The position numbers and the translations under genes were made by a program. A DNA stretch of 64,000 nt from an uncultured Anaerolineales bacterium (GTDB taxonomy: Bacteria; Chloroflexota; Anaerolineae; Anaerolineales; UBA6663), in the NCBI GenBank assembly GCA_964480865.1, contig CAYZRP010000008.1, positions 9,080-73,079 on the forward strand, in the 5' to 3' direction. The notes under the pieces were generated by a model, which worked only from the letters and a program-made list of their open reading frames with translations, was not told the DNA's origin and ran no database searches. Shown in pieces: positions 1,621 to 62,358 of the stretch; position 1 is the stretch's first letter; the number at the start of each line of letters is the position of its first letter.

Positions 1621-1697
1621 AGCGACGAACGAAGAAGGACGAATGACGAAGGTTGTGTGAGACGACCTTCGTCATTCGTCCTTCGTCGTTCGTCGCT
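1621..1697. repeat. GACGAAN-heptamer hairpin element, copy A
   Basis: Imperfect palindrome agcgacgaacgaagaaggacgaatgacgaaggt ... accttcgtcattcgtccttcgtcgttcgtcgct. It sits 3 nt after the ATPase stop and about 20 nt from the stop of the convergent methyltransferase, so it could act as a bidirectional terminator. Confidence 0.8.
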
Positions 1698-13221: not shown

Positions 13222-13226
13222 TCCTG

Positions 13227-13281
13227 ACCCACAACAAAAGAGCCCGACGTGCCAGGCACGTCGGGCTCTTTTGTTGTGGGT
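13227..13281. terminator. Bidirectional intrinsic terminator between smc and mtnA
   Basis: Perfect 25-bp-arm palindrome ACCCACAACAAAAGAGCCCGACGTG-ccagg-CACGTCGGGCTCTTTTGTTGTGGGT, with U-rich tracts in both orientations. Confidence 0.8.
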
Positions 13282-14348
13282 CAACCCCGCACGAGCGGCG
13301 CCAGAGTCTCCGAAAACGGCGGGCGCGCGATGCCGTGCTCGGTGATGATGGCCGTGATCAGGTCGTGGTCGGTGACGTCGAAAGCCGGGTTGTACGCGGC
13401 CACGTTGTCGGGCGCCATCGGCCGCTCATACCACATGCGCTTCAGCTCATCGGGCTGGCGCAGCTCGATCGGGATCGCAGAGCCATCCGGGCAAGCCAGA
13501 TCGACGGTCGAGGTCGGGGCGCAGATGTAGAACGGGATGTTGAAACGCTTCGCCAGGATCGCGACACCCAGCGTCCCGATCTTGTTGGCCGAGTCGCCGT
13601 TGGCGGCCACGCGGTCGCAGCCGACCAGGACGGCCTGCACCCAGCCGTTCTTCATCACCGTGGCGGCCATGCTGTCGGTGATCAGGGTGACGTCGATGCC
13701 CGCCTGGCTCAACTCATAGACGGTCAGGCGCGCGCCCTGGAGGAGCGGCCGGGTCTCATCGGCGAAGACCTTGAAGCCATAGCCACGCTCATGGCCGAGG
13801 TACATGGCCGCCGTGGCCGTGCCGTACTTCGACGTCGCCAGCTGGCCGGCGTTGCAGTGCGTGAGCAGGCCGTCGCCGGGCTTGAGGAGGCTCAGCGCGT
13901 GCTCGCCGATGGCACGGTTGGTGCGCATGTCGATGGCCTTGATCTCGTGGGCTTCAGCGATCAGGGCACGCTTGACCTCAACCACGCTGGCGCCCGGCAG
14001 CGCGTCCAGACAATGCTGCATCCGATCCAGCGCCCAGAACAGGTTGACGGCCGTCGGGCGCGAGGAGGCCAGGTGCGCCCGGGTTGCCGCGAACGCAGCG
14101 CGAAACCCATCGAGATCCGCGTCGGGGAAGTCGTGCAGCACCGCGCACAGTCCGTAGGCGGCAGCGATGCCGATCGCCGGCGCCCCGCGAACGCGCAGCG
14201 CGTGGATGGCCTCCCAGATCGCGTCAACGTTGCGCAGTCGCAGCATCACGGTCTCGCCCGGTAATCGAGTCTGGTCGATCAGCACGAGCTCGCCGGTGTG
14301 CTCGTCGTAGTCCACGGTTTCGATCTGCAGGATATTGGGTGTGCTCAC
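13281..14348 (-). CDS. mtnA: S-methyl-5-thioribose-1-phosphate isomerase
   Basis: 355 aa, eIF-2B-related family. Matching segments: LRVRGAPAIGIAAAYG, RPTAVNLFWAL and VLVGCDRVAANGDSANKIGT. Confidence 0.9.
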   Translation of the reverse strand: MSTPNILQIETVDYDEHTGELVLIDQTRLPGETVMLRLRNVDAIWEAIHALRVRGAPAIGIAAAYGLCAVLHDFPDADLDGFRAAFAATRAHLASSRPTAVNLFWALDRMQHCLDALPGASVVEVKRALIAEAHEIKAIDMRTNRAIGEHALSLLKPGDGLLTHCNAGQLATSKYGTATAAMYLGHERGYGFKVFADETRPLLQGARLTVYELSQAGIDVTLITDSMAATVMKNGWVQAVLVGCDRVAANGDSANKIGTLGVAILAKRFNIPFYICAPTSTVDLACPDGSAIPIELRQPDELKRMWYERPMAPDNVAAYNPAFDVTDHDLITAIITEHGIARPPFSETLAPLVRG

Positions 14349-15302: not shown

Positions 15303-15327
15303 CAGCATCAGGCGTACCAAACGAAAA

Positions 15328-15355
15328 GGCCGCCCGGGCGTTTGCCCGGGCGGCC
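15328..15355. terminator. Bidirectional intrinsic terminator (aldolase / PPIase convergent pair)
   Basis: GGCCGCCCGGGC-gttt-GCCCGGGCGGCC, flanked by AAAA on the 5' side and TTTGTCTTTGTTT on the 3' side. Confidence 0.8.
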
Positions 15356-15387
15356 TTTGTCTTTGTTTGGCTACGTCTTGGCGATCG

Positions 15388-22519: not shown

Positions 22520-22529
22520 AACGAAAAAA

Positions 22530-22560
22530 GGTCGGGTCAGGGCTGGGCCCTGACCCGACC
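22530..22560 (-). terminator. Intrinsic terminator after the PucR-family gene
   Basis: GGTCGGGTCAGGGC-tgg-GCCCTGACCCGACC. On the minus strand it is followed by TTTTTTCGTTTT. Confidence 0.8.
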
Positions 22561-22575
22561 TTTTCGGCGAACGAC

Positions 22576-24545: not shown

Positions 24546-27488
24546 ATGACGGAACTCATCCACTGCCTGATTGTCTCGCCCCGCCGTCCGGACGACCCAC
24601 GATCGCGCGGGCTGCTGCACGATGCTCACTCGTTGGGCCTCGAAGCCGTGACCCATATCACGGCATCGGATCTGTATTTCATTGAGGGCCCGCTCACCGC
24701 TCACGACCAGGACAGGCTCGTCTCGTTCCTGTTGAGTGATCCTGTGGCAGAGAAAGCGGAGTGGCGCCGCTTCGATCACCCCGCCCACGCGCCAAAATCC
24801 GCCCAACACATCATTGAAGTCGCGTATCGGCCGGGTGTCACGGATCCTGTGGCCGAGCAGATCGTGCGCGGCGCGCACCAGCTCGGCGTCAACGCCGTAG
24901 CCCGCGCGGCCACTGGGTTGCGCTTCGACGTGCGCTCGAAGACCGGCGACCCTGCATTGCTGCATCAACTCGCGCGCGGCCTGCTCGCGAACGCCGTCAT
25001 CCAGCACTACACGCTGGGCGACATCGTGCCGCACTTCCCGGCCGTCGCCCAGAGCACCGACGCCACCGAGACGATCGCGGTGCGCGGCCTCGACGACGCG
25101 GCGCTGCTCGCGCTTTCGCAGGACAGACGCGCGGCCCTCGACCTCGCCGAGATGCGCGCCATCCAGGCCTATTTCGCGACTGAGGGTCGCGACCCGACCG
25201 ACGTCGAGTTCGAGATGATCGCTCAGACCTGGAGCGAGCATTGCGTGCACAAGACGTTCAAGGCGAGGATCGAGGTGACAGGCGACGAAGGACGAACGAC
25301 GAACGACGAAGGTCGGATGGCCGCACAACCTTCGTCGTCCGTCAGTCGTCCTTCGTCTGTTGACGGTCTCCTCAAGACCTACCTCCGCTCGGCGACCGAG
25401 GCGATCAAGGCGCCGTGGGTGCGGTCGGCGTTCGTCGACAACGCGGGCATCCTCGACTTCGACGACGATTTCGAGGTGTCGTTCAAAGTCGAGACCCACA
25501 ACCATCCGTCCGCGATCGAGCCGTTCGGCGGCGCGAACACGGGGTTAGGCGGCGTCATCCGCGATGTGCTCGGCGTGAGCGCGCGGCCGATCGCGTCGAC
25601 TGACATCCTCTGCTTCGGACCGCAAGACACCGAGCCGGCGACCTTGCCGGGCGGTGTGCTGCACCCGCGCCGCGTGCGCTCGGGCGTGGTGGCCGGCATC
25701 AAGGACTACGGCAACAAGATCGGGCTGCCGACTGTCAATGGCGCCATCTGGTACGACCCCGGCTACACCTCGAATCCGCTGGTGTTTTGTGGCTGTGTCG
25801 GGATCGCGCCCAAGGATAAACATCCACGCACGCCACAATCCGGCGACCGCGTCATCGTCCTCGGTGGTCGGACGGGGCGCGACGGCCTGCGCGGCGCGAC
25901 GTTCTCGTCGATGACCATGGACGCGCAGACCGGCGAGGTCGCCGGCGCATCGGTGCAGATCGGCGACCCGATCGTCGAGAAGGGCCTGATCGAAGTCATC
26001 GTGCGCGCCCGCGACCTCGGGCTGTACCACGCCATCACCGACTGCGGCGCAGGCGGGCTCTCGTCGGCGGTGGGCGAGATGGCGTCGGGCTGCGGCGCCG
26101 ACGTCGACCTGGCGACGGTGCGACTGAAGTACGCGGGCCTCGCGCCCTGGGAGATCTGGCTATCGGAGGCGCAGGAGCGCATGGTGCTGGCCGTGCCGCC
26201 CGACTCGCTCCCAGCCCTGCAATCCATCTGCGCGACGTTCGACGTCGAACTGACGGACATCGGCGTTTTCAATGAGAGCGGCCGGTTGCGCGTGGCGTAC
26301 GGCTCGAAACCCGTGCTCGACCTCGCGAACGATTTCCTGCACGACGGCATCCCGCAGCGCCAACTCAGAGCGACCGTCAACGCCGCGTCACCGCGCGCGG
26401 CGACGACAGGCGTTACCCCTGCGGGCGTCTCCTACGGCCAGTTGCTGCTGCGGCTGCTGCGTGACGCGAACATCGCCACAAAGGCTGATGTCATCCGGGT
26501 CTACGACCATGAGATCCTGGGCGGCACCATCGTCAAGCCGCTGACCGGCGTGCAGCACGACGGTCCGGCGGACGCATCCGTCATCAAGCCAACCGGCACG
26601 GCGGGCACACGCGGCATCGTCCTGAGCAATGGGCTCAATCCGGACTTTGGCAAACTCGATGCGTACCGCATGGCCTGGAGCGTCATCGACGAGGCGATCC
26701 GCAACGCCGTCGCCGTCGGTGCCGATCCGAGCCGCATCGCCATCCTCGACAACTTCTGCTGGGGCGATCCGACCCGGCCGGAGACCCTCGGCAGTCTGCT
26801 CGAAGCCGCGCGTGGTTGCCACGACGCCGCCGTGTTCTATGGCACGCCCTTCATCTCCGGCAAGGACTCGCTCAACAACGAGTACCTGGGCACGGACGGG
26901 AAGCGCCACGCGATCCCGCCGACGCTGCTCATCTCTGCCATCGGCCTGATCGACGACGTCCGTTCCGCCGTCACCAGTGACCTCAAGGCCGCGGGTCATC
27001 ACCTCTTCCTGATCGGCGACACCCGCGACGAACTGGGGGGCGCGCATGTTTGGAAGACTTTGAGAGAGACGCGGGAAGAGGGAGAAGAGAGGGGCGCCGT
27101 GCCGGGGCCGGTGGAAGGGGCCTTGGCGCTCTATCGGGCATTGCACAGTGCGATCACGCAGGGCCTGGTGGCGAGTTGCCATGACCTGAGTGAAGGCGGG
27201 CTGGCGGTAGCGGCAGGTGAGATGTGCATCGGCGGACGGCTGGGGCTGGCGTTGACGCTGCCTGACGGTGAGCCGTTCGTGCAACTGTTCAGCGAGTCGA
27301 ATGGGCGGTTGTTGGTCGAGGTGGCGCCCGCACATCTGGATGCGTTCGTCGCTCTATTCGAGAGCCTGCCTGTGAAACAACTGGGTCTGATCACCGACTC
27401 GGGCCGGTTGACGATCTCAACCCGCGCCGAGGTGATCGTCGATGTGCAGGTGTCGGACATGGTGAAAGCATGGACCAACCCGGCCTGA
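24546..27488 (+). CDS. purL: FGAM synthase subunit PurL with two N-terminal PurS-like domains (PurS-PurS-PurL fusion)
   Basis: 980 aa, versus about 740 for small PurL as I recall it. Residues ~3-75 and ~88-160 each look PurS-like: ...FLLSDPVAEKAEW, and EVAYRPGVTDPVAEQI...LLANAVIQHYTL. PurL core motifs include TWSEHCVHKTF, ETHNHPSAIEPFGGA and SGKDSLNNEY. Confidence 0.9.
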   Translation: MTELIHCLIVSPRRPDDPRSRGLLHDAHSLGLEAVTHITASDLYFIEGPLTAHDQDRLVSFLLSDPVAEKAEWRRFDHPAHAPKSAQHIIEVAYRPGVTDPVAEQIVRGAHQLGVNAVARAATGLRFDVRSKTGDPALLHQLARGLLANAVIQHYTLGDIVPHFPAVAQSTDATETIAVRGLDDAALLALSQDRRAALDLAEMRAIQAYFATEGRDPTDVEFEMIAQTWSEHCVHKTFKARIEVTGDEGRTTNDEGRMAAQPSSSVSRPSSVDGLLKTYLRSATEAIKAPWVRSAFVDNAGILDFDDDFEVSFKVETHNHPSAIEPFGGANTGLGGVIRDVLGVSARPIASTDILCFGPQDTEPATLPGGVLHPRRVRSGVVAGIKDYGNKIGLPTVNGAIWYDPGYTSNPLVFCGCVGIAPKDKHPRTPQSGDRVIVLGGRTGRDGLRGATFSSMTMDAQTGEVAGASVQIGDPIVEKGLIEVIVRARDLGLYHAITDCGAGGLSSAVGEMASGCGADVDLATVRLKYAGLAPWEIWLSEAQERMVLAVPPDSLPALQSICATFDVELTDIGVFNESGRLRVAYGSKPVLDLANDFLHDGIPQRQLRATVNAASPRAATTGVTPAGVSYGQLLLRLLRDANIATKADVIRVYDHEILGGTIVKPLTGVQHDGPADASVIKPTGTAGTRGIVLSNGLNPDFGKLDAYRMAWSVIDEAIRNAVAVGADPSRIAILDNFCWGDPTRPETLGSLLEAARGCHDAAVFYGTPFISGKDSLNNEYLGTDGKRHAIPPTLLISAIGLIDDVRSAVTSDLKAAGHHLFLIGDTRDELGGAHVWKTLRETREEGEERGAVPGPVEGALALYRALHSAITQGLVASCHDLSEGGLAVAAGEMCIGGRLGLALTLPDGEPFVQLFSESNGRLLVEVAPAHLDAFVALFESLPVKQLGLITDSGRLTISTRAEVIVDVQVSDMVKAWTNPA
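25284..25357. repeat. GACGAAN-heptamer hairpin element, copy B, in frame inside purL
   Basis: gacgaaggacgaacgacgaacgacgaaggt-cggatggccgcaca-accttcgtcgtccgtcagtcgtccttcgtc. It is translated as DEGRTTNDEGRMAAQPSSSVSRPSS. The loop core ATGGCCGC.CAACC is shared with copy D. Confidence 0.8.
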
Positions 27489-27982: not shown

Positions 27983-28761
27983 CGACACCGCGCGCCTTGA
28001 TCCTGCACGCTAACGGCACCAACCGGGACGGCGACGTCGCGGAGGCGCTGCGCCTCGCCGGCGCTGAGCCCGAGATCGCGCACCTCAACACCCTGCGACA
28101 AGACGGGCGTCCCTGGGCCCAGTACCAGATGCTCGTGCTGCCGGGCGGCTTCGCCTATGCCGACGCGCTCGGCGCAGGCCGGCTGATGGGCCTCGACCTG
28201 CGCACGTACTTCGCCGACGAGATGGCGGCCTTCATCGAGAGCGGCAAGCCCGTGATCGGGATCTGCAATGGCTTCCAGACTCTTGTCAAAGGTGGCTTTC
28301 TGCCGGGGCTCGATGCCGACCATGGTCGTCCTTATGCGACGTTGACCTTCAACGCCAGCGGGCACTTCGAATGCCGCTGGGTCACGCTGCGAGCGCGCTC
28401 GCGCCACTGTCTGTGGACACGTGGCCTGAGCGAGTTGATCGATTGCCCGATCGCTCACGGAGAAGGCAACTTCACGCTGGCCAACCCATCGCTGCTGGCG
28501 GATCTCAACGTCGACGATCAGATCGCGCTGGTCTATGCGCGACCCGATGGCGGGCCGGCCGACGAGCGCTATCCGGATAACCCGAACGGCTCGATCGCCG
28601 ACATCGCCGGCGTGTGCAATCCGGCCGGCAACGTCCTCGGCCTGATGCCTCACCCGGAGAACCACATCTACTCTCACCAACATCCGCACCACACCCGTGG
28701 CTTTGCGGGTCGCCTCGGCCTGGCGCTGTTCCAGAACGGCGTGAAAGCGACGGGAGCGTAG
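27979..28761 (+). CDS. purQ: FGAM synthase glutamine amidotransferase subunit PurQ
   Basis: Start at MTTPRALILHANGTN within listed ORF 27523..28761. Catalytic GICNGFQ, and a C-terminal HGEGNF...MPHPE triad region. Confidence 0.9.
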   Translation: MTTPRALILHANGTNRDGDVAEALRLAGAEPEIAHLNTLRQDGRPWAQYQMLVLPGGFAYADALGAGRLMGLDLRTYFADEMAAFIESGKPVIGICNGFQTLVKGGFLPGLDADHGRPYATLTFNASGHFECRWVTLRARSRHCLWTRGLSELIDCPIAHGEGNFTLANPSLLADLNVDDQIALVYARPDGGPADERYPDNPNGSIADIAGVCNPAGNVLGLMPHPENHIYSHQHPHHTRGFAGRLGLALFQNGVKATGA

Positions 28762-28809
28762 AGCGTAGAGCGTGGAGCGTGGAGCGTAGAGCGTGGAGCG
28801 TGGAGCGTG
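28754..28809 (+). repeat. Tandem heptamer array (GAGCGTR)x8
   Basis: gagcgta gagcgta gagcgtg gagcgtg gagcgta gagcgtg gagcgtg gagcgtg. The first unit contains the purQ stop TAG (28759..28761). Confidence 0.85.
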
Positions 28810-28829
28810 ATTGAGACGGCGGACGACGA

Positions 28830-28882
28830 GACTACCTGACTACCTGACTACTTGACTACTTGACTAAACGACTAACCGACTA
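28830..28882 (+). repeat. Tandem octamer array (GACTAMYY)x6.5
   Basis: gactacct gactacct gactactt gactactt gactaaac gactaacc gacta. It runs directly into the purC ATG at 28882. Confidence 0.85.
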
Positions 28883-31512: not shown

Positions 31513-32915
31513 CCGATCATCCCCAACATGAATGCGGCGTGCTGGGCATCTACGCGCCGAACGAGGACGTTGCCCGGATGGCGTTCTTCGGTCTGTATGC
31601 CCTGCAGCACAGAGGCCAGGAGGCCGCTGGCCTGGCGGTCAGTGATGGCCACGCCATCCGACTGCACAAAGATGTTGGCCTTGTCTCACAGGTCTTCACG
31701 CCGACCAATCTGGCGCCGATGAGCGGAAACTTCGCCATCGGACACACACGCTATTCGACGACCGGCTCATCGAATGCGCGCAACGCCCAGCCCTACGTCA
31801 TCGAGACCATCCACGGCCCCGTCGGGCTCGCGCACAACGGCAACCTGCTCAACACGGCTGAATTGCGCCGTGGGTTACTGGCTCGAGGCATCGGGCTGCA
31901 GGCCGGATCCGACAGCGAAGTCATGATCATGATGCTGGCCGGCGCCCAGGGAGACACCTGGGTCGACCGCATCCAGGACACGATGCCAAAATGGCGCGGC
32001 GCCTACTGCCTCGCGATCCTGACCAACGACGGCGTCTTTGCCGTGCGCGACCCGTGGGGCTTTCACCCGTTGAGCGTCGGCCGCCTGCCCAATGGCGGCC
32101 ACGTCGTCGCCAGCGAGACCGGCGCGCTGCACACGCTCGGCTGCCAGGCGATCCGCGAGGTCAAGCCGGGTGAGATCGTGGCGCTGACCGACAGCGCGTT
32201 GCGCGTGCGGCAGGCGCTGCCGGCGGAGAAGCAACTCGCGCGCTGCACGTTCGAGCACATCTACTTCTCGCGACCCGACAGTTTCTGGGATGGGCTCAGC
32301 ACGCACCAGGTGCGCCAGCGGCTGGGCGAGGAACTCGCGCGCGAGGCGCCGGCCGACGCCGACGTCGTCATCCCCGTGCCCGACTCGGCCACACCGGCCG
32401 CCATCGGCTACTCTCAGACCAGCGGCATCTCCTACAACGATGGCTTCATCAAGAACCGCTACATCGGCCGGACCTTCATTCAGCCGACGGACTCCCTTCG
32501 CAAGCAAGGCGTCGCGCTGAAGTTCCTGGCGCTCGAGGAGAACCTGCGCGGTCAGCGCGTGATCGTGATCGACGACAGCATCGTTCGCGGCACGACCTCC
32601 GGCCCGCTCGTGCGGTTGCTGCGCGAGGCCGGCGCGCGCGAGGTCCACATGCGCATCACCTGTCCGCCGATCGCGCACCCGTGCTTCATGGGCGTCGACA
32701 TGGGCACTTACAACGAGCTGATCGCCCATCGGCTCACGATCGACGAGATCCGCGATCACATCGACTGCGACAGCCTGCACTATCTCTCGATCAACGGCAT
32801 GATGAACGCGCTCGGTCGGACGGGTGGCTACTGCAACGCCTGCTTCACCGGCGTCTATCCGCTCGACGTCGACCCGAGCCAGACCAAGACCGGGTTCGAA
32901 CGATCGATCGCTTGA
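31509..32915 (+). CDS. purF: Amidophosphoribosyltransferase
   Basis: N-terminal propeptide followed by the nucleophile (HECGVLGIY), HTRYSTTG, and the PRPP loop VIVIDDSIVRGTT. Confidence 0.92.
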   Translation: MTDHPQHECGVLGIYAPNEDVARMAFFGLYALQHRGQEAAGLAVSDGHAIRLHKDVGLVSQVFTPTNLAPMSGNFAIGHTRYSTTGSSNARNAQPYVIETIHGPVGLAHNGNLLNTAELRRGLLARGIGLQAGSDSEVMIMMLAGAQGDTWVDRIQDTMPKWRGAYCLAILTNDGVFAVRDPWGFHPLSVGRLPNGGHVVASETGALHTLGCQAIREVKPGEIVALTDSALRVRQALPAEKQLARCTFEHIYFSRPDSFWDGLSTHQVRQRLGEELAREAPADADVVIPVPDSATPAAIGYSQTSGISYNDGFIKNRYIGRTFIQPTDSLRKQGVALKFLALEENLRGQRVIVIDDSIVRGTTSGPLVRLLREAGAREVHMRITCPPIAHPCFMGVDMGTYNELIAHRLTIDEIRDHIDCDSLHYLSINGMMNALGRTGGYCNACFTGVYPLDVDPSQTKTGFERSIA

Positions 32916-32975
32916 TTGCTGATTGATGATTGCTGATTGAACGCCAATCAGCAATCAGCAATCTTCAATCAGCAA
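32913..32975. repeat. TGATTGC-heptamer hairpin at the purF-purD junction
   Basis: tgattgc tgattga tgattgc tgattga - acgcc - aatcagc aatcagc aatcttc aatcagc aa. The first heptamer contains the purF stop codon. Confidence 0.85.
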
Positions 32976-32989
32976 TTGAATGGGGCCGC

Positions 32990-39771: not shown

Positions 39772-39812
39772 AAGCGGGGCATGACGCTGATGATGAGCGC
39801 CACGCCCCGCTT
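39772..39812 (+). terminator. Terminator-like stem-loop after the pyrophosphatase gene
   Basis: AAGCGGGGC ... GCCCCGCTT with an internal CGCT/AGCG helix, followed by TCGTGTGG. The U tract is weak. Confidence 0.35.
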
Positions 39813-40650: not shown

Positions 40651-40786
40651 AGAAACCGGGAGTGCGAACGGCGCGTCTCGGTCCATGAGAACCGTCATTC
40701 GCACTCCCGGTTTCTTATCGACCTGACGCGCCGTTCGCACTCCCGGTTTCTTATCGACCTGACACGTCGTTCGCACTCCCGGTTTC
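40651..40786. repeat. 27-bp perfect inverted repeat plus a 36-bp tandem array (2.7 copies)
   Basis: AGAAACCGGGAGTGCGAACGGCGCGTC (40651..40677) is the exact reverse complement of 40725..40751. Tandem units lie at 40689..40724, 40725..40760 and 40761..40786, sharing the core TTCGCACTCCCGGTTTC. Confidence 0.85.
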
Positions 40787-40808: not shown

Positions 40809-43445
40809 ATGCGTCGACTGTGGGCACCTCTGCTGGGCGCCGGGCTTGTGGTCGCGATCCTGGCCCCGCTCCTGGGCACCAACCTGATCCTCGCCCGCGG
40901 AGACATGTTCCTGTACTTCTATCCGTACTGGGACGCCCGGGCCGAGGCACTGCGCGCGCTCCGCCTGCCTTTGTGGACACCCGATGTGTTCATGGGCGTG
41001 CCCTTCCTGGCGAACCCTCAGACCGGCGTCCTCTACCCACTCAACTGGCTCGTCGCGCCGTTCAGCGCTCCCGTGGCGGTGAAGATCAGCCTGGGCCTGC
41101 ACGCTCTGCTCGGGTGGCTGGGCATGGCCGGCCTCGCCCGTCGCAGCCTGTCGCTGAGCCGGCCCGCGGCCGTGCTGTCTGCCACGACCTTCGCCCTCGG
41201 CGGGTATCTGCTGGCCCAGGCCGAACACGTCAACCAGTTCCAGGCTCTGGCCTGGTTCCCGTGGCTGTTATGGGCGCTGACCTCGCGCTCGTTGTCAACC
41301 ACCCGACGCCTCTTGCTGACGGGCCTTGTCGTGGCGCTGCAGATTCTGGCCGGTCACACGCAGAGCGTGGTCATCTCGGGACTAGGGGCTGCGCTGTGGG
41401 TCGTGACCGAGCGCGTGGCCGGCACCTCCGGGCGTTGGACGACCCGCCTGGTCGCCGCAGGCCGCGCCCTCCTGCCGTTGATCGGTGCTGCCCTCCTCGC
41501 CGCCCTGCTCGCGGCCGCTCAGTTGGTTCCCACCGCTGAGTTGCAACAACTCTCACTGCGCAGCGGCGGCCTTGAGTGGCGCGACGCCGTGTCGTTCTCG
41601 TTGGATCCGCGCCTGCTCAGCCTCGCACTGCTGCCCGGCTACTCGCGTAGCCTGTTCACGGAGTTCGTGGCCTCGCCCGGATTGATCGCTCTGGGACTCG
41701 CCGTGATCGGGTCTGCTGCCGCCGACCGACGCCGCTGGCCGATCCTGGCCGTCACGCTGGTCGGTCTCGGTTTCGCGTTCGGCGCATACGATCCGGTCTA
41801 CGCCGGGCTGGCCTTCTTCCCGCCCTTCAATCTCTTTCGCGTCCCCGCCCGCTGGCTGTTCCTCTTCGCCGCCGGTGTGGCGCTCCTGGCGGGCCTGGGC
41901 CTGGATGCGTTGAAGGTCAGTTCACGACGCGCCCGATGGGCGGCCGCTGGGGCCGCGGTGGTCATCCTCGCCGGAGTCGCTCTGTCGATCGGCCGGACCC
42001 CGGCCGGTGAGACCGGCCCGATCGGCGCGCCCGCCTGGCTCGACCTCGTCGGCTGGGGTGTGGCCCTGGCCGTGCTGCTTGCCCTGCTCTGGCAAAACAC
42101 CAGCTCGCTCGGATCCTGGCTGGCGTTGTCCGCGGTTGTGCTCGAGATCGGCCTCGGCGCTCGCGCGTTGCCGATCCTCGCCAATCTGACGGCGCCCGAA
42201 GCCTACGCGAGCCTGCGCCCCGCTCTGCTTCAACTGCTGGTTGACCCTGCCCGTTCGACAACCGATGGACCGCCGCCCGGCCGGGTCGTGTCGATGTCGG
42301 CTCTGCAGTTCGACCCCGGCGATCTGGGTGAACTGCGCACCCTCTACGGGCCACAGCTTTCGCCGGCGGGCCTCGAGACCCTGATCGTCGCGACCAAGCA
42401 CAAGGAAGTGCTCTCGCCCAATCTCGCGCTGACCTGGCACGTGCCCAGCGTCGATGGCTTCGACGGCGGCATCTTGCCGACGCGCGCGTACGCCGAGTTC
42501 ACGTCGCTCTTCACCGGCGAGCTCTCGAGCGATGGACGCCTACGCGAGCACGTGACCGCGGCGCCCGATCCGCGCTGGCTGGCGCTCGTCAACGCCCGCT
42601 GGTTGATCGCCGACAAGACCGGCGACGTCTGGCTCGATGGCGTGTACTACGACACGCTGCTCGCCCGACCCCTCGCGCCCGATGAGCGCGTCAACCTCAC
42701 GATTGATCCCGCGTTTCCGGCGGATCGACTTGGCGTGCTTTCGGTCGACGGAGGACGGTTGACGATCACCCGGGGCGAGTCGCGCGCCAACCTCACTTTC
42801 GAGGCCGGCCATAGCCTGCTCGATCTGCCTTTCGCGCCCGAAGCCATCGAGCTCTCCGGGCCTACGACCTTTGAGGCGCTGACCGTCATCGCCACACGTT
42901 CAGGCGCTTTCCAGTCGGTGCCGTTGCGCGCCTACCGGCTGGCGCACAGCGGCGATGTCAAGATCTATGAAGTGCTCGACCGACTGCCACGTGCGTTCGT
43001 GGCCAGGGACGTCGCTCAAGTGGAGACCACAACCGACATCCTCAACCGCATGCGCGACCCGGCCTACTCGCCGACAGACCTGGCCTTCTTGCAGCCTGGT
43101 CTACGCGCACTTCCACAGGCGACGACGGCGCCGTCGTCGGTGCAGTTCAGCGAATATTCGGCGGAGCGGATCGTCTTGAAGGCGATGGGGCCCGGGTTGT
43201 TGGTACTGACCGATGCGGCCTATCCGGGCTGGAAGGCAACGGTCGATGGAGACGAGACGCCGATCGTCACGACCGACGTCGTCTTTCGCGGAGTCGTGCT
43301 CGGGCCGGGTGAGCACGTCGTGGTCTTCACCTTCGCGCCGTCGTCTGTGACGATCGGGCTGACGGTCTCGCTGGCCGCTGTTGCGCTCTGGCTGGTGGTG
43401 GCTGCCGTCGATGGGCGCCGCTCAGTGCCCCGACGTGGCCATTAG
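40809..43445 (+). CDS. YfhO-family polytopic membrane protein
   Basis: 878 aa. N-terminus GDMFLYFYPYW...LPLWTPDVFMGVPFLANPQTGVLYPLNWL and many TM helices are typical of YfhO. Confidence 0.75.
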   Translation: MRRLWAPLLGAGLVVAILAPLLGTNLILARGDMFLYFYPYWDARAEALRALRLPLWTPDVFMGVPFLANPQTGVLYPLNWLVAPFSAPVAVKISLGLHALLGWLGMAGLARRSLSLSRPAAVLSATTFALGGYLLAQAEHVNQFQALAWFPWLLWALTSRSLSTTRRLLLTGLVVALQILAGHTQSVVISGLGAALWVVTERVAGTSGRWTTRLVAAGRALLPLIGAALLAALLAAAQLVPTAELQQLSLRSGGLEWRDAVSFSLDPRLLSLALLPGYSRSLFTEFVASPGLIALGLAVIGSAAADRRRWPILAVTLVGLGFAFGAYDPVYAGLAFFPPFNLFRVPARWLFLFAAGVALLAGLGLDALKVSSRRARWAAAGAAVVILAGVALSIGRTPAGETGPIGAPAWLDLVGWGVALAVLLALLWQNTSSLGSWLALSAVVLEIGLGARALPILANLTAPEAYASLRPALLQLLVDPARSTTDGPPPGRVVSMSALQFDPGDLGELRTLYGPQLSPAGLETLIVATKHKEVLSPNLALTWHVPSVDGFDGGILPTRAYAEFTSLFTGELSSDGRLREHVTAAPDPRWLALVNARWLIADKTGDVWLDGVYYDTLLARPLAPDERVNLTIDPAFPADRLGVLSVDGGRLTITRGESRANLTFEAGHSLLDLPFAPEAIELSGPTTFEALTVIATRSGAFQSVPLRAYRLAHSGDVKIYEVLDRLPRAFVARDVAQVETTTDILNRMRDPAYSPTDLAFLQPGLRALPQATTAPSSVQFSEYSAERIVLKAMGPGLLVLTDAAYPGWKATVDGDETPIVTTDVVFRGVVLGPGEHVVVFTFAPSSVTIGLTVSLAAVALWLVVAAVDGRRSVPRRGH

Positions 43446-50182: not shown

Positions 50183-50515
50183 GGCGCGTCTCCGTCGTGA
50201 TCGTACCATGCCGACCGACGTCGACCCAGATCGCAACCCGTGCTGCCGAACAGACAGGCACGACTGGATACCATTGCTCCATCCAGACGCCGCAAGACGG
50301 GGGCACTGCCAACGCCGGTGGTCAAGTCTCGATCTGAGTGGTACTGTCCGGTTATTGACCCTACCCGACCCGGCCCGCATAATGCCAGTTCGAACCTTGG
50401 TATTATGGTTAGTCGGGTCCGGCCCGCCGACATCTGACACCGACGCTTCCGTGCCAGCAGGTGCGGAGAGGCTGAACGTGGTCGATCGGCCGCCACATTG
50501 GGAACCCAGCCCCTC

Positions 50516-56995
<6,480 letters not shown>

Positions 56996-59620: not shown

Positions 59621-59679
59621 GACGAAGAACGAATGACGAACGACGAATGCTCATTCGTCGCCGTCATTCGTCTTTCGAC
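59621..59679. repeat. GACGAAN-heptamer hairpin element, copy C (short form)
   Basis: gacgaagaacgaatgacgaacgacgaatg-ct-cattcgtcgccgtcattcgtctttcgac. It lies in the divergent spacer between the FAH gene and the methyltransferase-like gene. Confidence 0.75.
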
Positions 59680-59684
59680 CTCGC

Positions 59685-60512
59685 ATGTTACCATGCTCCA
59701 TCGTGCGACGACCTTCAGCGCGGCCCATCGGCCAACCCACGCGCGGCAAGACTGCGCCAAACAGACTGCGCAAGACCGATATCTTCCTCGCGCTGGCATT
59801 TCCAGAGTTCGTCCGGCACCTGCCCGGGCTCTACATCGACCTGGGTTACGGGGCGTATCCCGTCACCTCCGTCGAAACCCTGGTCCGGCTGCGAGCGTTC
59901 AACCCGGAACTTCGGGTGGTGGGCGTTGAGATCGATCCGGAGCGGGTTGCCGCCGCCCTGCCCGACCGCCAACCCGGGCTCGACTTTCGCCTGGGCGGCT
60001 TCAACCTGCCGCTCGAGCCCGGCGAGCGCGCGGCCGTCGTGAGGGCCTTCAACGTCTTGCGGCAGTACCCGGAATCCGACGTTCCTGGGGCGCTTCAAGC
60101 GCTCGCGGAGGGCATGACCGAGCACGCCCTGCTCATCGAAGGCACTTCAAGCCCCACCGGGCAACTGATGACCTTCAACCTCTTCCAGCAACACGCCAGG
60201 CGCCTCGAGACGCTCGGGCTCGTCCTGGCTCCCAGCCTTCATCGTGATTTCGCGCCGCGGCAGTTGCAGCCCGTGCTGCCGAAGAATTACATCCACCATG
60301 CTGCGCCCGACGGCGCGATTGACGCCTTCTTTGGCACGTGGACGAAAGCCTGGTCCGCAGCACGCGCACACGGGCAGGATCTGCGCCAGGTCTTTTCGGC
60401 CTCTGCGCTGCGATTGCGCGATGCCGGCTATGCGCTTGACCCGCGCCCGGCCCTTCTGCGTCGCGGGTTCTTGTGGCTCAAATCGCCGTGGCCGCTGAGA
60501 AACGACGAATGA
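59685..60512 (+). CDS. Putative class I methyltransferase-like protein
   Basis: YIDLGYGAYP...VVGVEID resembles SAM motif I and post-I. The start is uncertain. The last three codons and the stop lie inside repeat copy D. Confidence 0.5.
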   Translation: MLPCSIVRRPSARPIGQPTRGKTAPNRLRKTDIFLALAFPEFVRHLPGLYIDLGYGAYPVTSVETLVRLRAFNPELRVVGVEIDPERVAAALPDRQPGLDFRLGGFNLPLEPGERAAVVRAFNVLRQYPESDVPGALQALAEGMTEHALLIEGTSSPTGQLMTFNLFQQHARRLETLGLVLAPSLHRDFAPRQLQPVLPKNYIHHAAPDGAIDAFFGTWTKAWSAARAHGQDLRQVFSASALRLRDAGYALDPRPALLRRGFLWLKSPWPLRNDE

Positions 60513-60570
60513 CGAATGACGAAGGTTGAATGGCCGCCCAACCTTCGTCATTCGTCCATCGTCATTCGTC
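60501..60570. repeat. GACGAAN-heptamer hairpin element, copy D
   Basis: aacgacgaatgacgaatgacgaaggt-tgaatggccgccca-accttcgtcattcgtccatcgtcattcgtc, between convergent genes. Confidence 0.8.
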
Positions 60571-60579
60571 ATGCATTCA

Positions 60580-62358
60580 TTACTGCTCCAGCTTCCAGTT
60601 CTGCACGTCCCAGGTCATGGAGCCCCAGGTGCTCACAGTGTAGCCCGAGAGCCTGGAAGAGAAACCGTAGCCGTCCTGAAAAACGTATAGGTACAGTTGC
60701 GGAAGCTCGTCCTGCACCAGTTTGCCCAGTTCGCAGTAGGCCTGTTTGCGGGTGGCCTGATCGAAGGTGCCGCCGGCGGTGGCGATGAGCGTGTCGGCCT
60801 CAGGGCTCACCCAGCGGAAATAGTTGTCGCCGTCCGGGTTGTCGGGTCCGGGAATGCTTGAGGTGAGGAAGTAGGCCGCCACTTCCTGCTGCGGCTCGAT
60901 CGTGAAGCTGCGATCATAGATGAGCATGTCGAAGTCGCCGGTCTTGCGCGGCGACCCGTCGCCGTAGCTGCCGAAGATGATCGAAAAGTCATAATTGACG
61001 ATGTTGACTTCGATACCGACTTCCTTCCATTGCTCGACCAACCACTCTTCGGTCAACTGGAGCGGATCGTAGTTGGTATAGCCCTGCAACTCCAGGGTCA
61101 TGCGCGTGCCGTCCGGGGCGTTCGGGGCACCTTGAGCGACGCGAACACCGTCTGGGCCCACGACCCAGCCGGCTTCATCGAGCAGGCGCCTGGCCTTCTC
61201 GATGTCGAAGGTCTGCTGACGGGGCAGATCGCATTCGTACCATCCATACGCAAACGGGTTCGTCGAGTGGATCACGCCCTGATCGCCGAGGACGTCGTCG
61301 ACCAGCGTGTCGTAATCGACGGCATAGGCCATCGCCTGCCGCACGCGCAGATCGCCGAGGATCGGGTGTGGCTGGCCGGGGCCGGCATCACCGTCACCCG
61401 GAGCACTGAGATTGAAGTCGATGGCCAGGTTCCAGACGCCGGGCACCAACACCTGTTTGGCGACACCGGCCATGCGTAGGTCGTACGTCTCCTGATCGGC
61501 GCCGGGCCAGAGCTGCACGTGAGCGTCGCCCTGCTGCATGAGGGCCTCCTGTGCAGCTTCATCCGGGATGATGCTAAAGATGATGCGGTCGAGAGACGGC
61601 TTGCCGGCCTCGTAGTAATTCGGATTGCGGTCGAGCGTGATGCTCTCTCCGGCGCGCCATTCGCTGACAACGAACGGCCCGGCACCAACGGGTTGTGTGT
61701 TCCACTCCCAATTGAGCATGTCGCCGGGATCACCGGTGGCGTGCTTGGGGAAGATCCCGGCCGAGAACTGACCGAGGTAATCGGGATAGGGCGCCGCGTA
61801 AGTGACGACGGCCGTCAAGGCATCGGGCGTCTCGATCGACGTGATCTCGGCGAACCCACCGGTCTGCGCGAGTGCGCCACTGTCCGGGTTCGAGATCGTC
61901 TGCCAGGTGTGGACGATGTCTTCCGACGTGATCGGCTCGCCGTCGGACCACTTCAGGTCGGGCTTGAGGTGCCAGGTGACCGTCAGCAGATCCTCCGACA
62001 GCCCACCGTTGTCGGCCCCGGGGAGTTCCGTCGCAAGCGCCGGCTGGTACTGGCCATCCGGGTCGACGTAGGTCAGGCCGGTGCCGCTTGTCGCGTCGGC
62101 CACCTGGCGCACGATGGCGGCATCGCCGAGGTAGCGATTGAGCGTGGTGGGCTCTTCGGGGATGATCAACACGATCTGCCCGCCCGCTCCCGCAGGCGCT
62201 TCACCACTGGTGGGCGCCGCGGTCGGCTGATCGACACTGCCGGCGGTTGGCTGATCGGCCGGGGCTGTCGCCTGCGGCGCTGCTGGCGTTGTGCAGGCCG
62301 CCAGCAACAGGCTCAGCCCCAGGCCGACCCGCGTCAATGTGCGCTGAGTAGGGGTCAT
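60580..62358 (-). CDS. ABC transporter substrate-binding lipoprotein (family 5, peptide/nickel type)
   Basis: Lipobox LLLAAC, 592 aa, SBP_bac_5-like sequence. Followed by two Opp/Dpp-type permeases. Confidence 0.85.
   Translation of the reverse strand: MTPTQRTLTRVGLGLSLLLAACTTPAAPQATAPADQPTAGSVDQPTAAPTSGEAPAGAGGQIVLIIPEEPTTLNRYLGDAAIVRQVADATSGTGLTYVDPDGQYQPALATELPGADNGGLSEDLLTVTWHLKPDLKWSDGEPITSEDIVHTWQTISNPDSGALAQTGGFAEITSIETPDALTAVVTYAAPYPDYLGQFSAGIFPKHATGDPGDMLNWEWNTQPVGAGPFVVSEWRAGESITLDRNPNYYEAGKPSLDRIIFSIIPDEAAQEALMQQGDAHVQLWPGADQETYDLRMAGVAKQVLVPGVWNLAIDFNLSAPGDGDAGPGQPHPILGDLRVRQAMAYAVDYDTLVDDVLGDQGVIHSTNPFAYGWYECDLPRQQTFDIEKARRLLDEAGWVVGPDGVRVAQGAPNAPDGTRMTLELQGYTNYDPLQLTEEWLVEQWKEVGIEVNIVNYDFSIIFGSYGDGSPRKTGDFDMLIYDRSFTIEPQQEVAAYFLTSSIPGPDNPDGDNYFRWVSPEADTLIATAGGTFDQATRKQAYCELGKLVQDELPQLYLYVFQDGYGFSSRLSGYTVSTWGSMTWDVQNWKLEQ

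Follow-up and report, generated by a model that had tools for sequence, protein, structure and literature searches.

GACGAAN heptamer palindromes reside at gene ends in an Anaerolineae genome and in one congener

Palindromes built from tandem GACGAAN heptamers are present in hundreds of copies in the draft genome of an uncultured member of the Anaerolineae (Chloroflexota; here G000) and in one congener (G003), where they lie at gene ends and are inherited at fixed sites. Their arms change by point changes and by gain or loss of units, both mirrored in the opposite arm, and a stem of ~35 bp is retained throughout. GACGAAN is a new, well-defined family, but its kind—convergent pairs of heptamer arrays—has already been published for Xanthomonas and cyanobacteria, and the best reading is that the elements are the Anaerolineae counterpart of those repeats. 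Judging from sequence comparison, we favor with moderate confidence an explanation in which they would be site-resident RNA hairpins that serve in termination or in 3'-end protection, and that form by slippage of heptamers together with symmetrization of the palindrome. The original prediction concerned four copies in a window—the whole 64,000-nt stretch that was analyzed—which lies in a genome of 7.2 Mb with 65% GC in 289 contigs.

A genome-wide scan of G000 returned 181 two-armed GACGAAN elements and 148 further one-armed GACGAAN tracts of at least three units; the dispersed family of heptamer-built hairpins is thus real. The canonical form, ~74 nt long, can be written (GACGAAN)x4 - core - (NTTCGTC)x4. 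Two core hairpins recur among the 181 two-armed copies: an 18-nt core, GTTGAATGGCCATTCAAC, in 82 of them, and a 15-nt core, GTTGTCTCACACAAC, in 34; the former is a perfect dyad around GGCC, the latter is non-palindromic and is found in both orientations. Genome-wide, the arms follow the order GACGAAN...NTTCGTC without exception, and the reverse order never occurs. Runs of N in the G000 assembly, at C66:27851-27953 and C19:12630-12736, coincide exactly with sites of GACGAA elements in G003; assembly gaps are a probable consequence of long heptamer palindromes, so this census would be an undercount.

In a search of the whole window, Rfam matched only a tRNA at the gathering score and offered no family for the elements, and around the fourth window copy it gave only chance matches to miRNA hairpins, which scored 17.6 bits where the cut-offs are 69 and 100. 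An exact-pattern search of viral contigs returned no copy, and in the literature we found no paper describing a GACGAAN-type family, or such repeats, in Anaerolineae. The suggestion that this is not a described family is true of GACGAAN itself; it is not true of the kind, since inverted pairs of heptamer arrays have been published for Xanthomonas (PMC4692102).

Within the window, the motif GACGAANGACGAA (up to one mismatch) occurs 21 times, with 0.49 expected and none of 100 shuffles reaching 21. All four predicted copies are present and all four were recovered as inverted repeats, in the gene contexts that had been described for them; copies A, C, and D carry no strand. Copy A (1621..1697) is made of four GACGAAN-type units, a core of the 15-nt type, GGTTGTGTGAGACGACC, and four NTTCGTC units, and sits between the convergent stop codons of genes for a P-type ATPase (1616-1618) and a methyltransferase (1717-1719). 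Its arms in the inverted-repeat search span 1621-1656 and 1662-1697 (36 nt, 94%), and its RNA fold is predicted at -66.1 kcal/mol (z -11.7); at the orthologous site, G003 has a GACGAA element too, with a different loop. Copy B (25284..25357, plus strand) has four units on either side of the 18-nt GGCC core and is in frame (GDEGRTTNDEGRMAAQPSSSVSRPSSV) within the gene for a fused PurS-PurL, with arms at 25284-25313 and 25328-25357 (30 nt, 90%) and a fold of -50.5 kcal/mol (z -7.1). In copy D (60501..60571, or ending at 60570), three units stand to the left of the core GGTTGAATGGCCGCCCAACC and four to its right; the arms of this copy were placed at 60496-60528 and 60539-60571 (33 nt, 85%), and its fold is -40.4 kcal/mol (z -7.3). 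It lies between convergent genes, a hypothetical gene (TGA at 60510-60512) and an SBP_bac_5 gene (stop at 60580-60582), and the TGA of the hypothetical gene falls within the first units of its left arm. In G003 the orthologous site likewise has a GACGAA element, but one built around the other core type, GGTCGTCACACACAACC. The loop core noted as common to copies B and D, ATGGCCGC(A/C)CAACC, is indeed shared, and is the 18-nt core of the family.

Copy C (59621..59679) is degenerate, with four left units, a short loop, and about two right units; its arms at 59623-59638 and 59662-59677 measure 16 nt (88%), and its fold is -30.3 kcal/mol (z -4.5). The divergent spacer that it occupies, 85 nt long, separates an FAA-hydrolase gene (minus strand, start 59599) from the hypothetical gene whose TGA lies in copy D (start 59685), and the same site holds GACCGCN-type hairpins in the congeners G003, G001, and G004, and none in G002. 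Beside it, at 59683-59696, is a small dyad, GCATGTTACCATGC, that overlaps the called start codon at 59685; the dyad is nearly invariant in all five congeners and the remaining divergent spacer is unalignable. It could be an operator, or a piece of the true start context.

The placement of the elements was assessed with a crude GC3-based gene caller of our own (5199 genes, 81% coverage). Elements lie in convergent (71), tandem, that is co-directional (78), and divergent (6) contexts or inside a called ORF (7), against a background of 474 convergent, 2072 tandem, and 562 divergent spacers (40 nt or longer); convergent spacers are over-represented among their sites, and divergent ones are seldom occupied. 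The distance from stop codon to element has a median of 18 nt and a mode of 5-9 nt, and at 16 of 220 gene ends the stop codon is within the element. Convergent spacers that hold a heptamer hairpin contain a median of only 17.5 nt of other sequence, compared with a median length of 74 nt for convergent spacers free of hairpins (p = 2e-5). When all heptamer families are counted, hairpins are found in 56 convergent and 112 co-directional spacers (spacers up to 600 nt), and so occupy a sizeable share of the gene-end spacers of G000.

In several respects the elements resemble intrinsic terminators: they are stable hairpins just past stop codons that could act both ways, ordinary terminators are found at some of the same sites in relatives, and a T-tract is present on one side of ~15% of elements, compared with 1.9% of the background (of 177 copies, 14 are followed by a T-tract and 13 have an A-tract in front). 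They differ in that their stems are several times longer than is typical and most copies lack a U-tract, as do all four window copies; since this holds for ~85% of copies, they are not canonical intrinsic terminators. An apparent mutual exclusivity between heptamer hairpins and canonical terminators (first 2/48 versus 93/336, odds ratio 0.11, p = 1e-4) was rejected as confounded by spacer length—when a residual spacer of at least 40 nt was required, the counts became 2/6 versus 93/270—and its disappearance shows only that the hairpin fills the spacer. The window also contains hairpins of classic type: those at 13225-13283 and 15318-15365, in convergent spacers, and at 22526-22564, between co-directional genes, have both A-tract and T-tract flanks and look like bidirectional intrinsic terminators, and in a fourth, at 39772-39812 in a convergent spacer, the only tract is a short T-run on one side. 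Ordinary terminators are therefore in use in this organism beside its heptamer hairpins.

Comparison with congeners shows how the elements are inherited. The half-site pattern GACGAANGACGAANGACGAAGGTTG occurs 275 times in G000, 124 times in G003, and 0-4 times in three other congeners, and is essentially absent from 36 further relatives. We retrieved 40 copies from G003, of which 28 have syntenic flanks in G000 (75-94% identity); at 24 of these 28 orthologous sites G000 has a GACGAA element, and the remaining four consist of two N-runs and two sites with another small hairpin (AGGCGTC and AGCTGAT type). Among readable sites, with N-runs excluded, 24 of 26 therefore have a GACGAA element, all 26 have some hairpin, and none is empty, from which it follows that the family predates the split of G000 and G003 and is site-resident. 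The elements occupy the same intergenic sites with altered length and sequence—unit numbers, unit "barcodes", and loops all differ between the two genomes. Within the window, the family stands at sites A and D in both genomes, and at sites B and C G003 has a family of GACGGTG/GACCGCN units instead. Such switching of family at orthologous sites, seen at copies B and C and at the loci L123 and L157, together with the presence or absence of a TGATTGC hairpin discussed below, indicates that hairpins are also gained or replaced. One metagenome was scanned for close strains, and the nearest relatives in it were at 75-81% amino-acid identity.

At these positions more distant congeners have, for the most part, ordinary hairpins, terminators among them. 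Flanks of ten G000 elements were searched in G001 and G004, and 15 orthologous spacers at nine sites were read, copy D apart. One spacer, at site 7, has a full GACGAA element. Another, at site 8, is a classic bidirectional terminator with A-tract, hairpin, and T-tract, and the G000 element at that site is followed by TGCTTTTTTG. At site 4 (locus L236), a spacer of G001 (C119:6645-6815) has a stem of a single unit, GGACGAAG...CGTTCGTCC, with the same kind of loop and then T6; in full it reads GAAGGACGAAGG-GTGTCGCACACAC-GCCGTTCGTCC followed by TTTTTT. This one-unit stem may be a proto-element and the terminator ancestral to the heptamer-armed form. The other spacers that were read include several ordinary stable hairpins and a few with little structure. 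Because ordinary hairpins and terminators stand at orthologous sites, and because T-tracts flank the elements far above background, the comparison supports the view that the elements occupy a gene-end hairpin niche.

The two arms of an element evolve together. Within G000, the variable seventh base is Watson-Crick matched between the arms in 277 of 389 outer units, where 118.5 matches are expected. An ungapped alignment of the 34 canonical 74-nt copies covers 35 stem pairs; changes on both sides are seen in 14 of these (69 cells), pairing holds in 96.2% of cells, and all five measures of covariation lie above all 500 shuffles, with controls in which the partner was slid far lower. Orthologues tell the same story: in 13 G000/G003 pairs with 280 stem positions, 18 positions have changed in one arm and 12 in both, and 10 of these 12 are complementary in both genomes, against 0.5 expected if the arms evolved independently. 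Between the two genomes, a marked unit has shifted symmetrically at locus L162, a 5-nt loop has been flipped at L126, and core types have been exchanged at L161 and at copy D. Orthologous stems differ by 7.5% per site, no more than their largely coding flanks (~8-20%; 75-94% identical). On the sense strand, G.U mismatches number 40 and A.C mismatches 25; this excess is weak and suggestive only, so selection at the RNA level is not separable from symmetrization at the DNA level. As a clean natural system, the family lends itself to work on the persistence of long palindromes in bacteria.

A small number of copies are translated. Only two of the 181 are clearly coding, both in frame—copy B in purL and one in a membrane-protein gene—and the other calls inside ORFs, out of seven, fall in over-called 5' extensions. 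Copy B occupies a variable loop after the residues HKTFKA of the fused PurS-PurL, a protein 64-68% identical to proteins of uncultured Anaerolineae/Anaerolineales; the loop has 34 residues in G000 and 12-15 in the shortest of ~60 Anaerolineae homologues, so that copy B is inserted in frame into a conserved protein, in a loop where homologues are shorter. About 26 of these ~60 homologues have loop DNA whose best-fitting period is 7 nt, and several contain obvious hairpins of unrelated units, for example GAGATTG, GACGATA, or GGAATGC; the loop of G003 has a different heptamer hairpin (GACGGTG/GACCGCT units) and that of G001 has none. Heptamer hairpins add peptides to housekeeping enzymes. Copy B has no unit in which N is T, and its left arm is therefore free of TGA. 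The original prediction had pictured a TGA every 7 nt in the intergenic copies: units in which N is T do give a TGA, but they make up only ~29% of outer units genome-wide, and stops in all three frames are seldom found within GACGAAN arms.

STRR is the name given to the heptamer repeats of cyanobacteria. Units of GGGAATC in Xanthomonas and of GGGGA(T/C)T in Nostoc were described by Rehm et al. 2015 (PMC4692102), who also cite a report of a heptanucleotide repeat in Calothrix. In Xanthomonas, 70-75 loci consist of two arrays in convergent orientation, with the G-rich arm first on both strands (PMC4692102). The GACGAAN elements are likewise mostly intergenic and made of tandem 7-nt units, and they share with the Xanthomonas pairs (PMC4692102) the convergent arms with the G-richer one first. 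Unlike the Xanthomonas and Nostoc repeats, they have a conserved small core hairpin between the arms and one free position in the unit that is mirrored in the other arm; their units cannot form G-quadruplexes, their copies lie near stop codons, two are translated, and the host belongs to the Chloroflexota.

Comparison can also be made with REP sequences, whose GTAG- and CGTC-tagged families were treated by Di Nocera et al. 2013 (PMC3733652). Like REP, BIME, and REPIN sequences, the GACGAAN elements are dispersed palindromes, mostly downstream of coding regions, probably transcribed, and sometimes inside genes. The CGTC-tagged REPs, which are without a dedicated transposase (PMC3733652), bear a further likeness—every unit of the GACGAAN element ends in CGTC, and the element itself ends in ...TTCGTC—but they have stems of 8-9 bp, loops of 4-5 nt, and no tandem units (PMC3733652). 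A REP is an imperfect palindrome of 20-40 nt with a GTAG or CGTC tag at its end, whereas the GACGAAN element has ~74 nt and a stem of ~35 bp that grows and shrinks in 7-nt steps. Two Rickettsia palindromic elements (RPEs) have been classed as CGTC REPs (PMC3733652). The purL and membrane-protein copies resemble RPEs as in-frame palindromes that add a peptide in a tolerant loop; however, clearly coding copies number just 2 of 181, the sequences are unrelated, and RPEs are not made of heptamers. The resemblances that were first pointed out, to REP/BIME in placement, to RPEs in translation within purL, and to STRR-type repeats in heptamer construction, are each supported.

One reading of these resemblances, a selfish element, found no support in the comparison. 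On that account the copies would be non-autonomous elements of REPIN or MITE type, transposing as single-stranded hairpins and settling at gene ends because insertion there is tolerated. We consider this unlikely, although it would fit the high copy number and very patchy spread of the half-sites (275 and 124, with 0-4 in three congeners), the sharp differences in other heptamer families between G000 and G003, the clean 57-nt presence or absence of the TGATTGC hairpin, the copies inside purL and a membrane-protein gene, and the different families found at the sites of copies B and C; a lack of dedicated transposase is likewise known from CGTC-tagged REPs (PMC3733652). Across the 181 copies, 164 have no flanking direct repeat of at least 2 nt and the rest have repeats of 2-4 nt, which is chance level; with neither target-site duplications nor conserved flanks, the MITE signature was rejected. 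The REP-RAYT link was rejected as well: GTAG REPs flank RAYT genes and the GACGAAN elements do not, for none of the four Y1-transposase-like (PF01797) loci of G000 (on C25, C150, C15, and C66) has, up to 18 kb away on the same contig, a GACGAA hairpin or one of another heptamer family, and copies flank no such gene. The 34 canonical copies all have different sequences, 24 of the 26 readable G003 sites are orthologous with barcodes largely inherited, and the search of viral contigs was empty. From these results, which for transposases cover the Y1 type, we infer that the elements are neither RAYT-mobilized REPs nor transposase-mobilized MITEs.

If the palindromes do not move, they could still be functionless: slippage with fold-back or template switching might make and symmetrize them wherever they do no harm. 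The excess of period-7 tracts (566, versus 115-163 for other periods), the many unrelated unit families with one architecture and one polarity, the frequent one-armed and decayed copies, and the variation of unit number among orthologues would all be expected of such a by-product, and a slippage hypothesis for heptamers is among the work cited in PMC4692102. Set against these is the strong bias to gene 3' ends with avoidance of divergent spacers, as well as the retention of a hairpin at all 26 readable orthologous sites and at most sites in the distant congeners; the stems, moreover, differ by only 7.5% per site where largely coding flanks differ by ~8-20%. Long perfect palindromes are usually unstable in bacteria, which also tells against this account, and we judge it improbable. 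A third proposal, that a protein—a dimeric regulator or nucleoid protein—reads the palindromic GGCC core and the iterated heptamers, seems to us very improbable. The 18-nt core is a perfect GGCC dyad and the heptamers are repeated like iterons, but it is pairing that is kept and not sequence, as the compensated core variants GTGGAATGGCCATTCCAC, GTTGGATGGCCATCCAAC, and GGTGAATGGCCATTCACC illustrate; a second, non-palindromic 15-nt core exists in both orientations, core types are swapped at orthologous sites, and the location is at gene ends rather than promoters.

The preferred explanation, a gene-end RNA hairpin, can be laid out at two levels. At the DNA level, replication slippage of 7-nt units would generate the arms, in some cases perhaps starting from an ordinary terminator hairpin, and symmetrization would keep them matched, whether by template switching in the quasi-palindrome, by conversion between copies, or by both. 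Template switching in quasi-palindromes is an established process in E. coli genetics. At the RNA level, the structure would act as an ordinary gene-end hairpin for genes entering from either side; its possible effects are termination or pausing of transcription and a block to 3'-to-5' exonucleases. A hairpin within ~15 nt of a stop codon may also hinder terminating ribosomes, an interference that has reportedly been shown for E. coli REPs near stop codons. Many copies cannot have a gene-end function, given the 148 one-armed or decayed tracts and the copies in divergent spacers and in genes. If the elements do prove to be terminators, or barriers at mRNA 3' ends without U-tracts, the prediction of operons and terminators for Anaerolineae, a large class most of whose members are uncultured, would need revision.

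GACGAAN is one member of a wider class. Period-7 tracts in G000 outnumber those of periods 5, 6, 8, 9, and 10 by 3.5-5x, and other heptamer families include GGAGCGT (the largest), GACCGCN, GATTGCT, GGCTATT, ATTGGTT, AGGCGTC, and more; their abundance is patchy across congeners and differs sharply between G000 and G003. Across all families, 147 out of 150 inverted pairs with period 7 have their G-richer arm on the 5' side, each family having one fixed polarity. A palindrome is identical on both strands, so this polarity amounts to a real constraint on structure; the independent families number only about six or seven, which makes its statistical weight modest. Several sources of the polarity were tried and rejected. 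The idea that each arm belongs to one gene and is G-rich on that gene's sense strand is not borne out by one-armed co-directional tracts (41 sense versus 31 antisense), a general property of hairpins in this genome would not suffice, as ordinary hairpins divide only 764 versus 612, and as a general rule stop codons account for neither the polarity nor the existence of the family, with ~29% of outer units giving TGA and GGAGCGT having no stop in either arm.

No current model explains this near-absolute arm polarity. A doubtful but possible account is that a directional DNA process in Anaerolineae, and perhaps in other phyla, writes 7-nt-periodic palindromes from ordinary gene-end hairpins regardless of unit sequence, with the G-richer arm 5', with copying from arm to arm, and with families overwriting one another. 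Should that hold, which we think rather unlikely, GACGAAN would be one output of "palindrome-writing" and neither a transposon nor a classic terminator. Candidates for the process would be fold-back synthesis by a nascent G-rich strand or an unknown enzyme.

The window also provides an example from a sister family. A TGATTGC-unit hairpin at 32913..32976 (no strand) has the same architecture, four left units and a facing inverted arm, and folds at -37.8 kcal/mol; its first TGA is the stop codon (32913-32915) of an amidophosphoribosyltransferase-like gene, and the next gene lies beyond. Compared with G003, whose spacer reads GCTTGATGGCGGTTGGGGGCCGCA, it is a clean 57-nt presence or absence, and no other heptamer hairpin of the window shows gain or loss so clearly. 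A one-armed composite array at 28754-28880 lies at the end of a gene that finishes near 28761: eight GAGCGT(A/G) heptamers (28754-28809), with the TAG of the gene at the array start, are followed by about six 8-nt units of the GACTACCT type. G003 has only a short, different sequence at this site, so the array expanded in the G000 lineage.

Two further features of the window were recorded. At 40651-40751, in the divergent spacer upstream of a gene starting at 40809, there are direct and inverted copies of AGAAACCGGGAGTGCGAACGGCGCGTC (27-29 nt, 86-100%), and G003 has this motif too, in another number and arrangement; it looks like a repeated regulator-binding site or a small repeat unrelated to the heptamers. 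The 2165-aa ORF at 50498-56995 corresponds to a region of ~50 kb in G003 (C27, ~505000-560000) with several diverged paralogues at 64-70% identity; a giant gene family has here undergone lineage-specific expansion.
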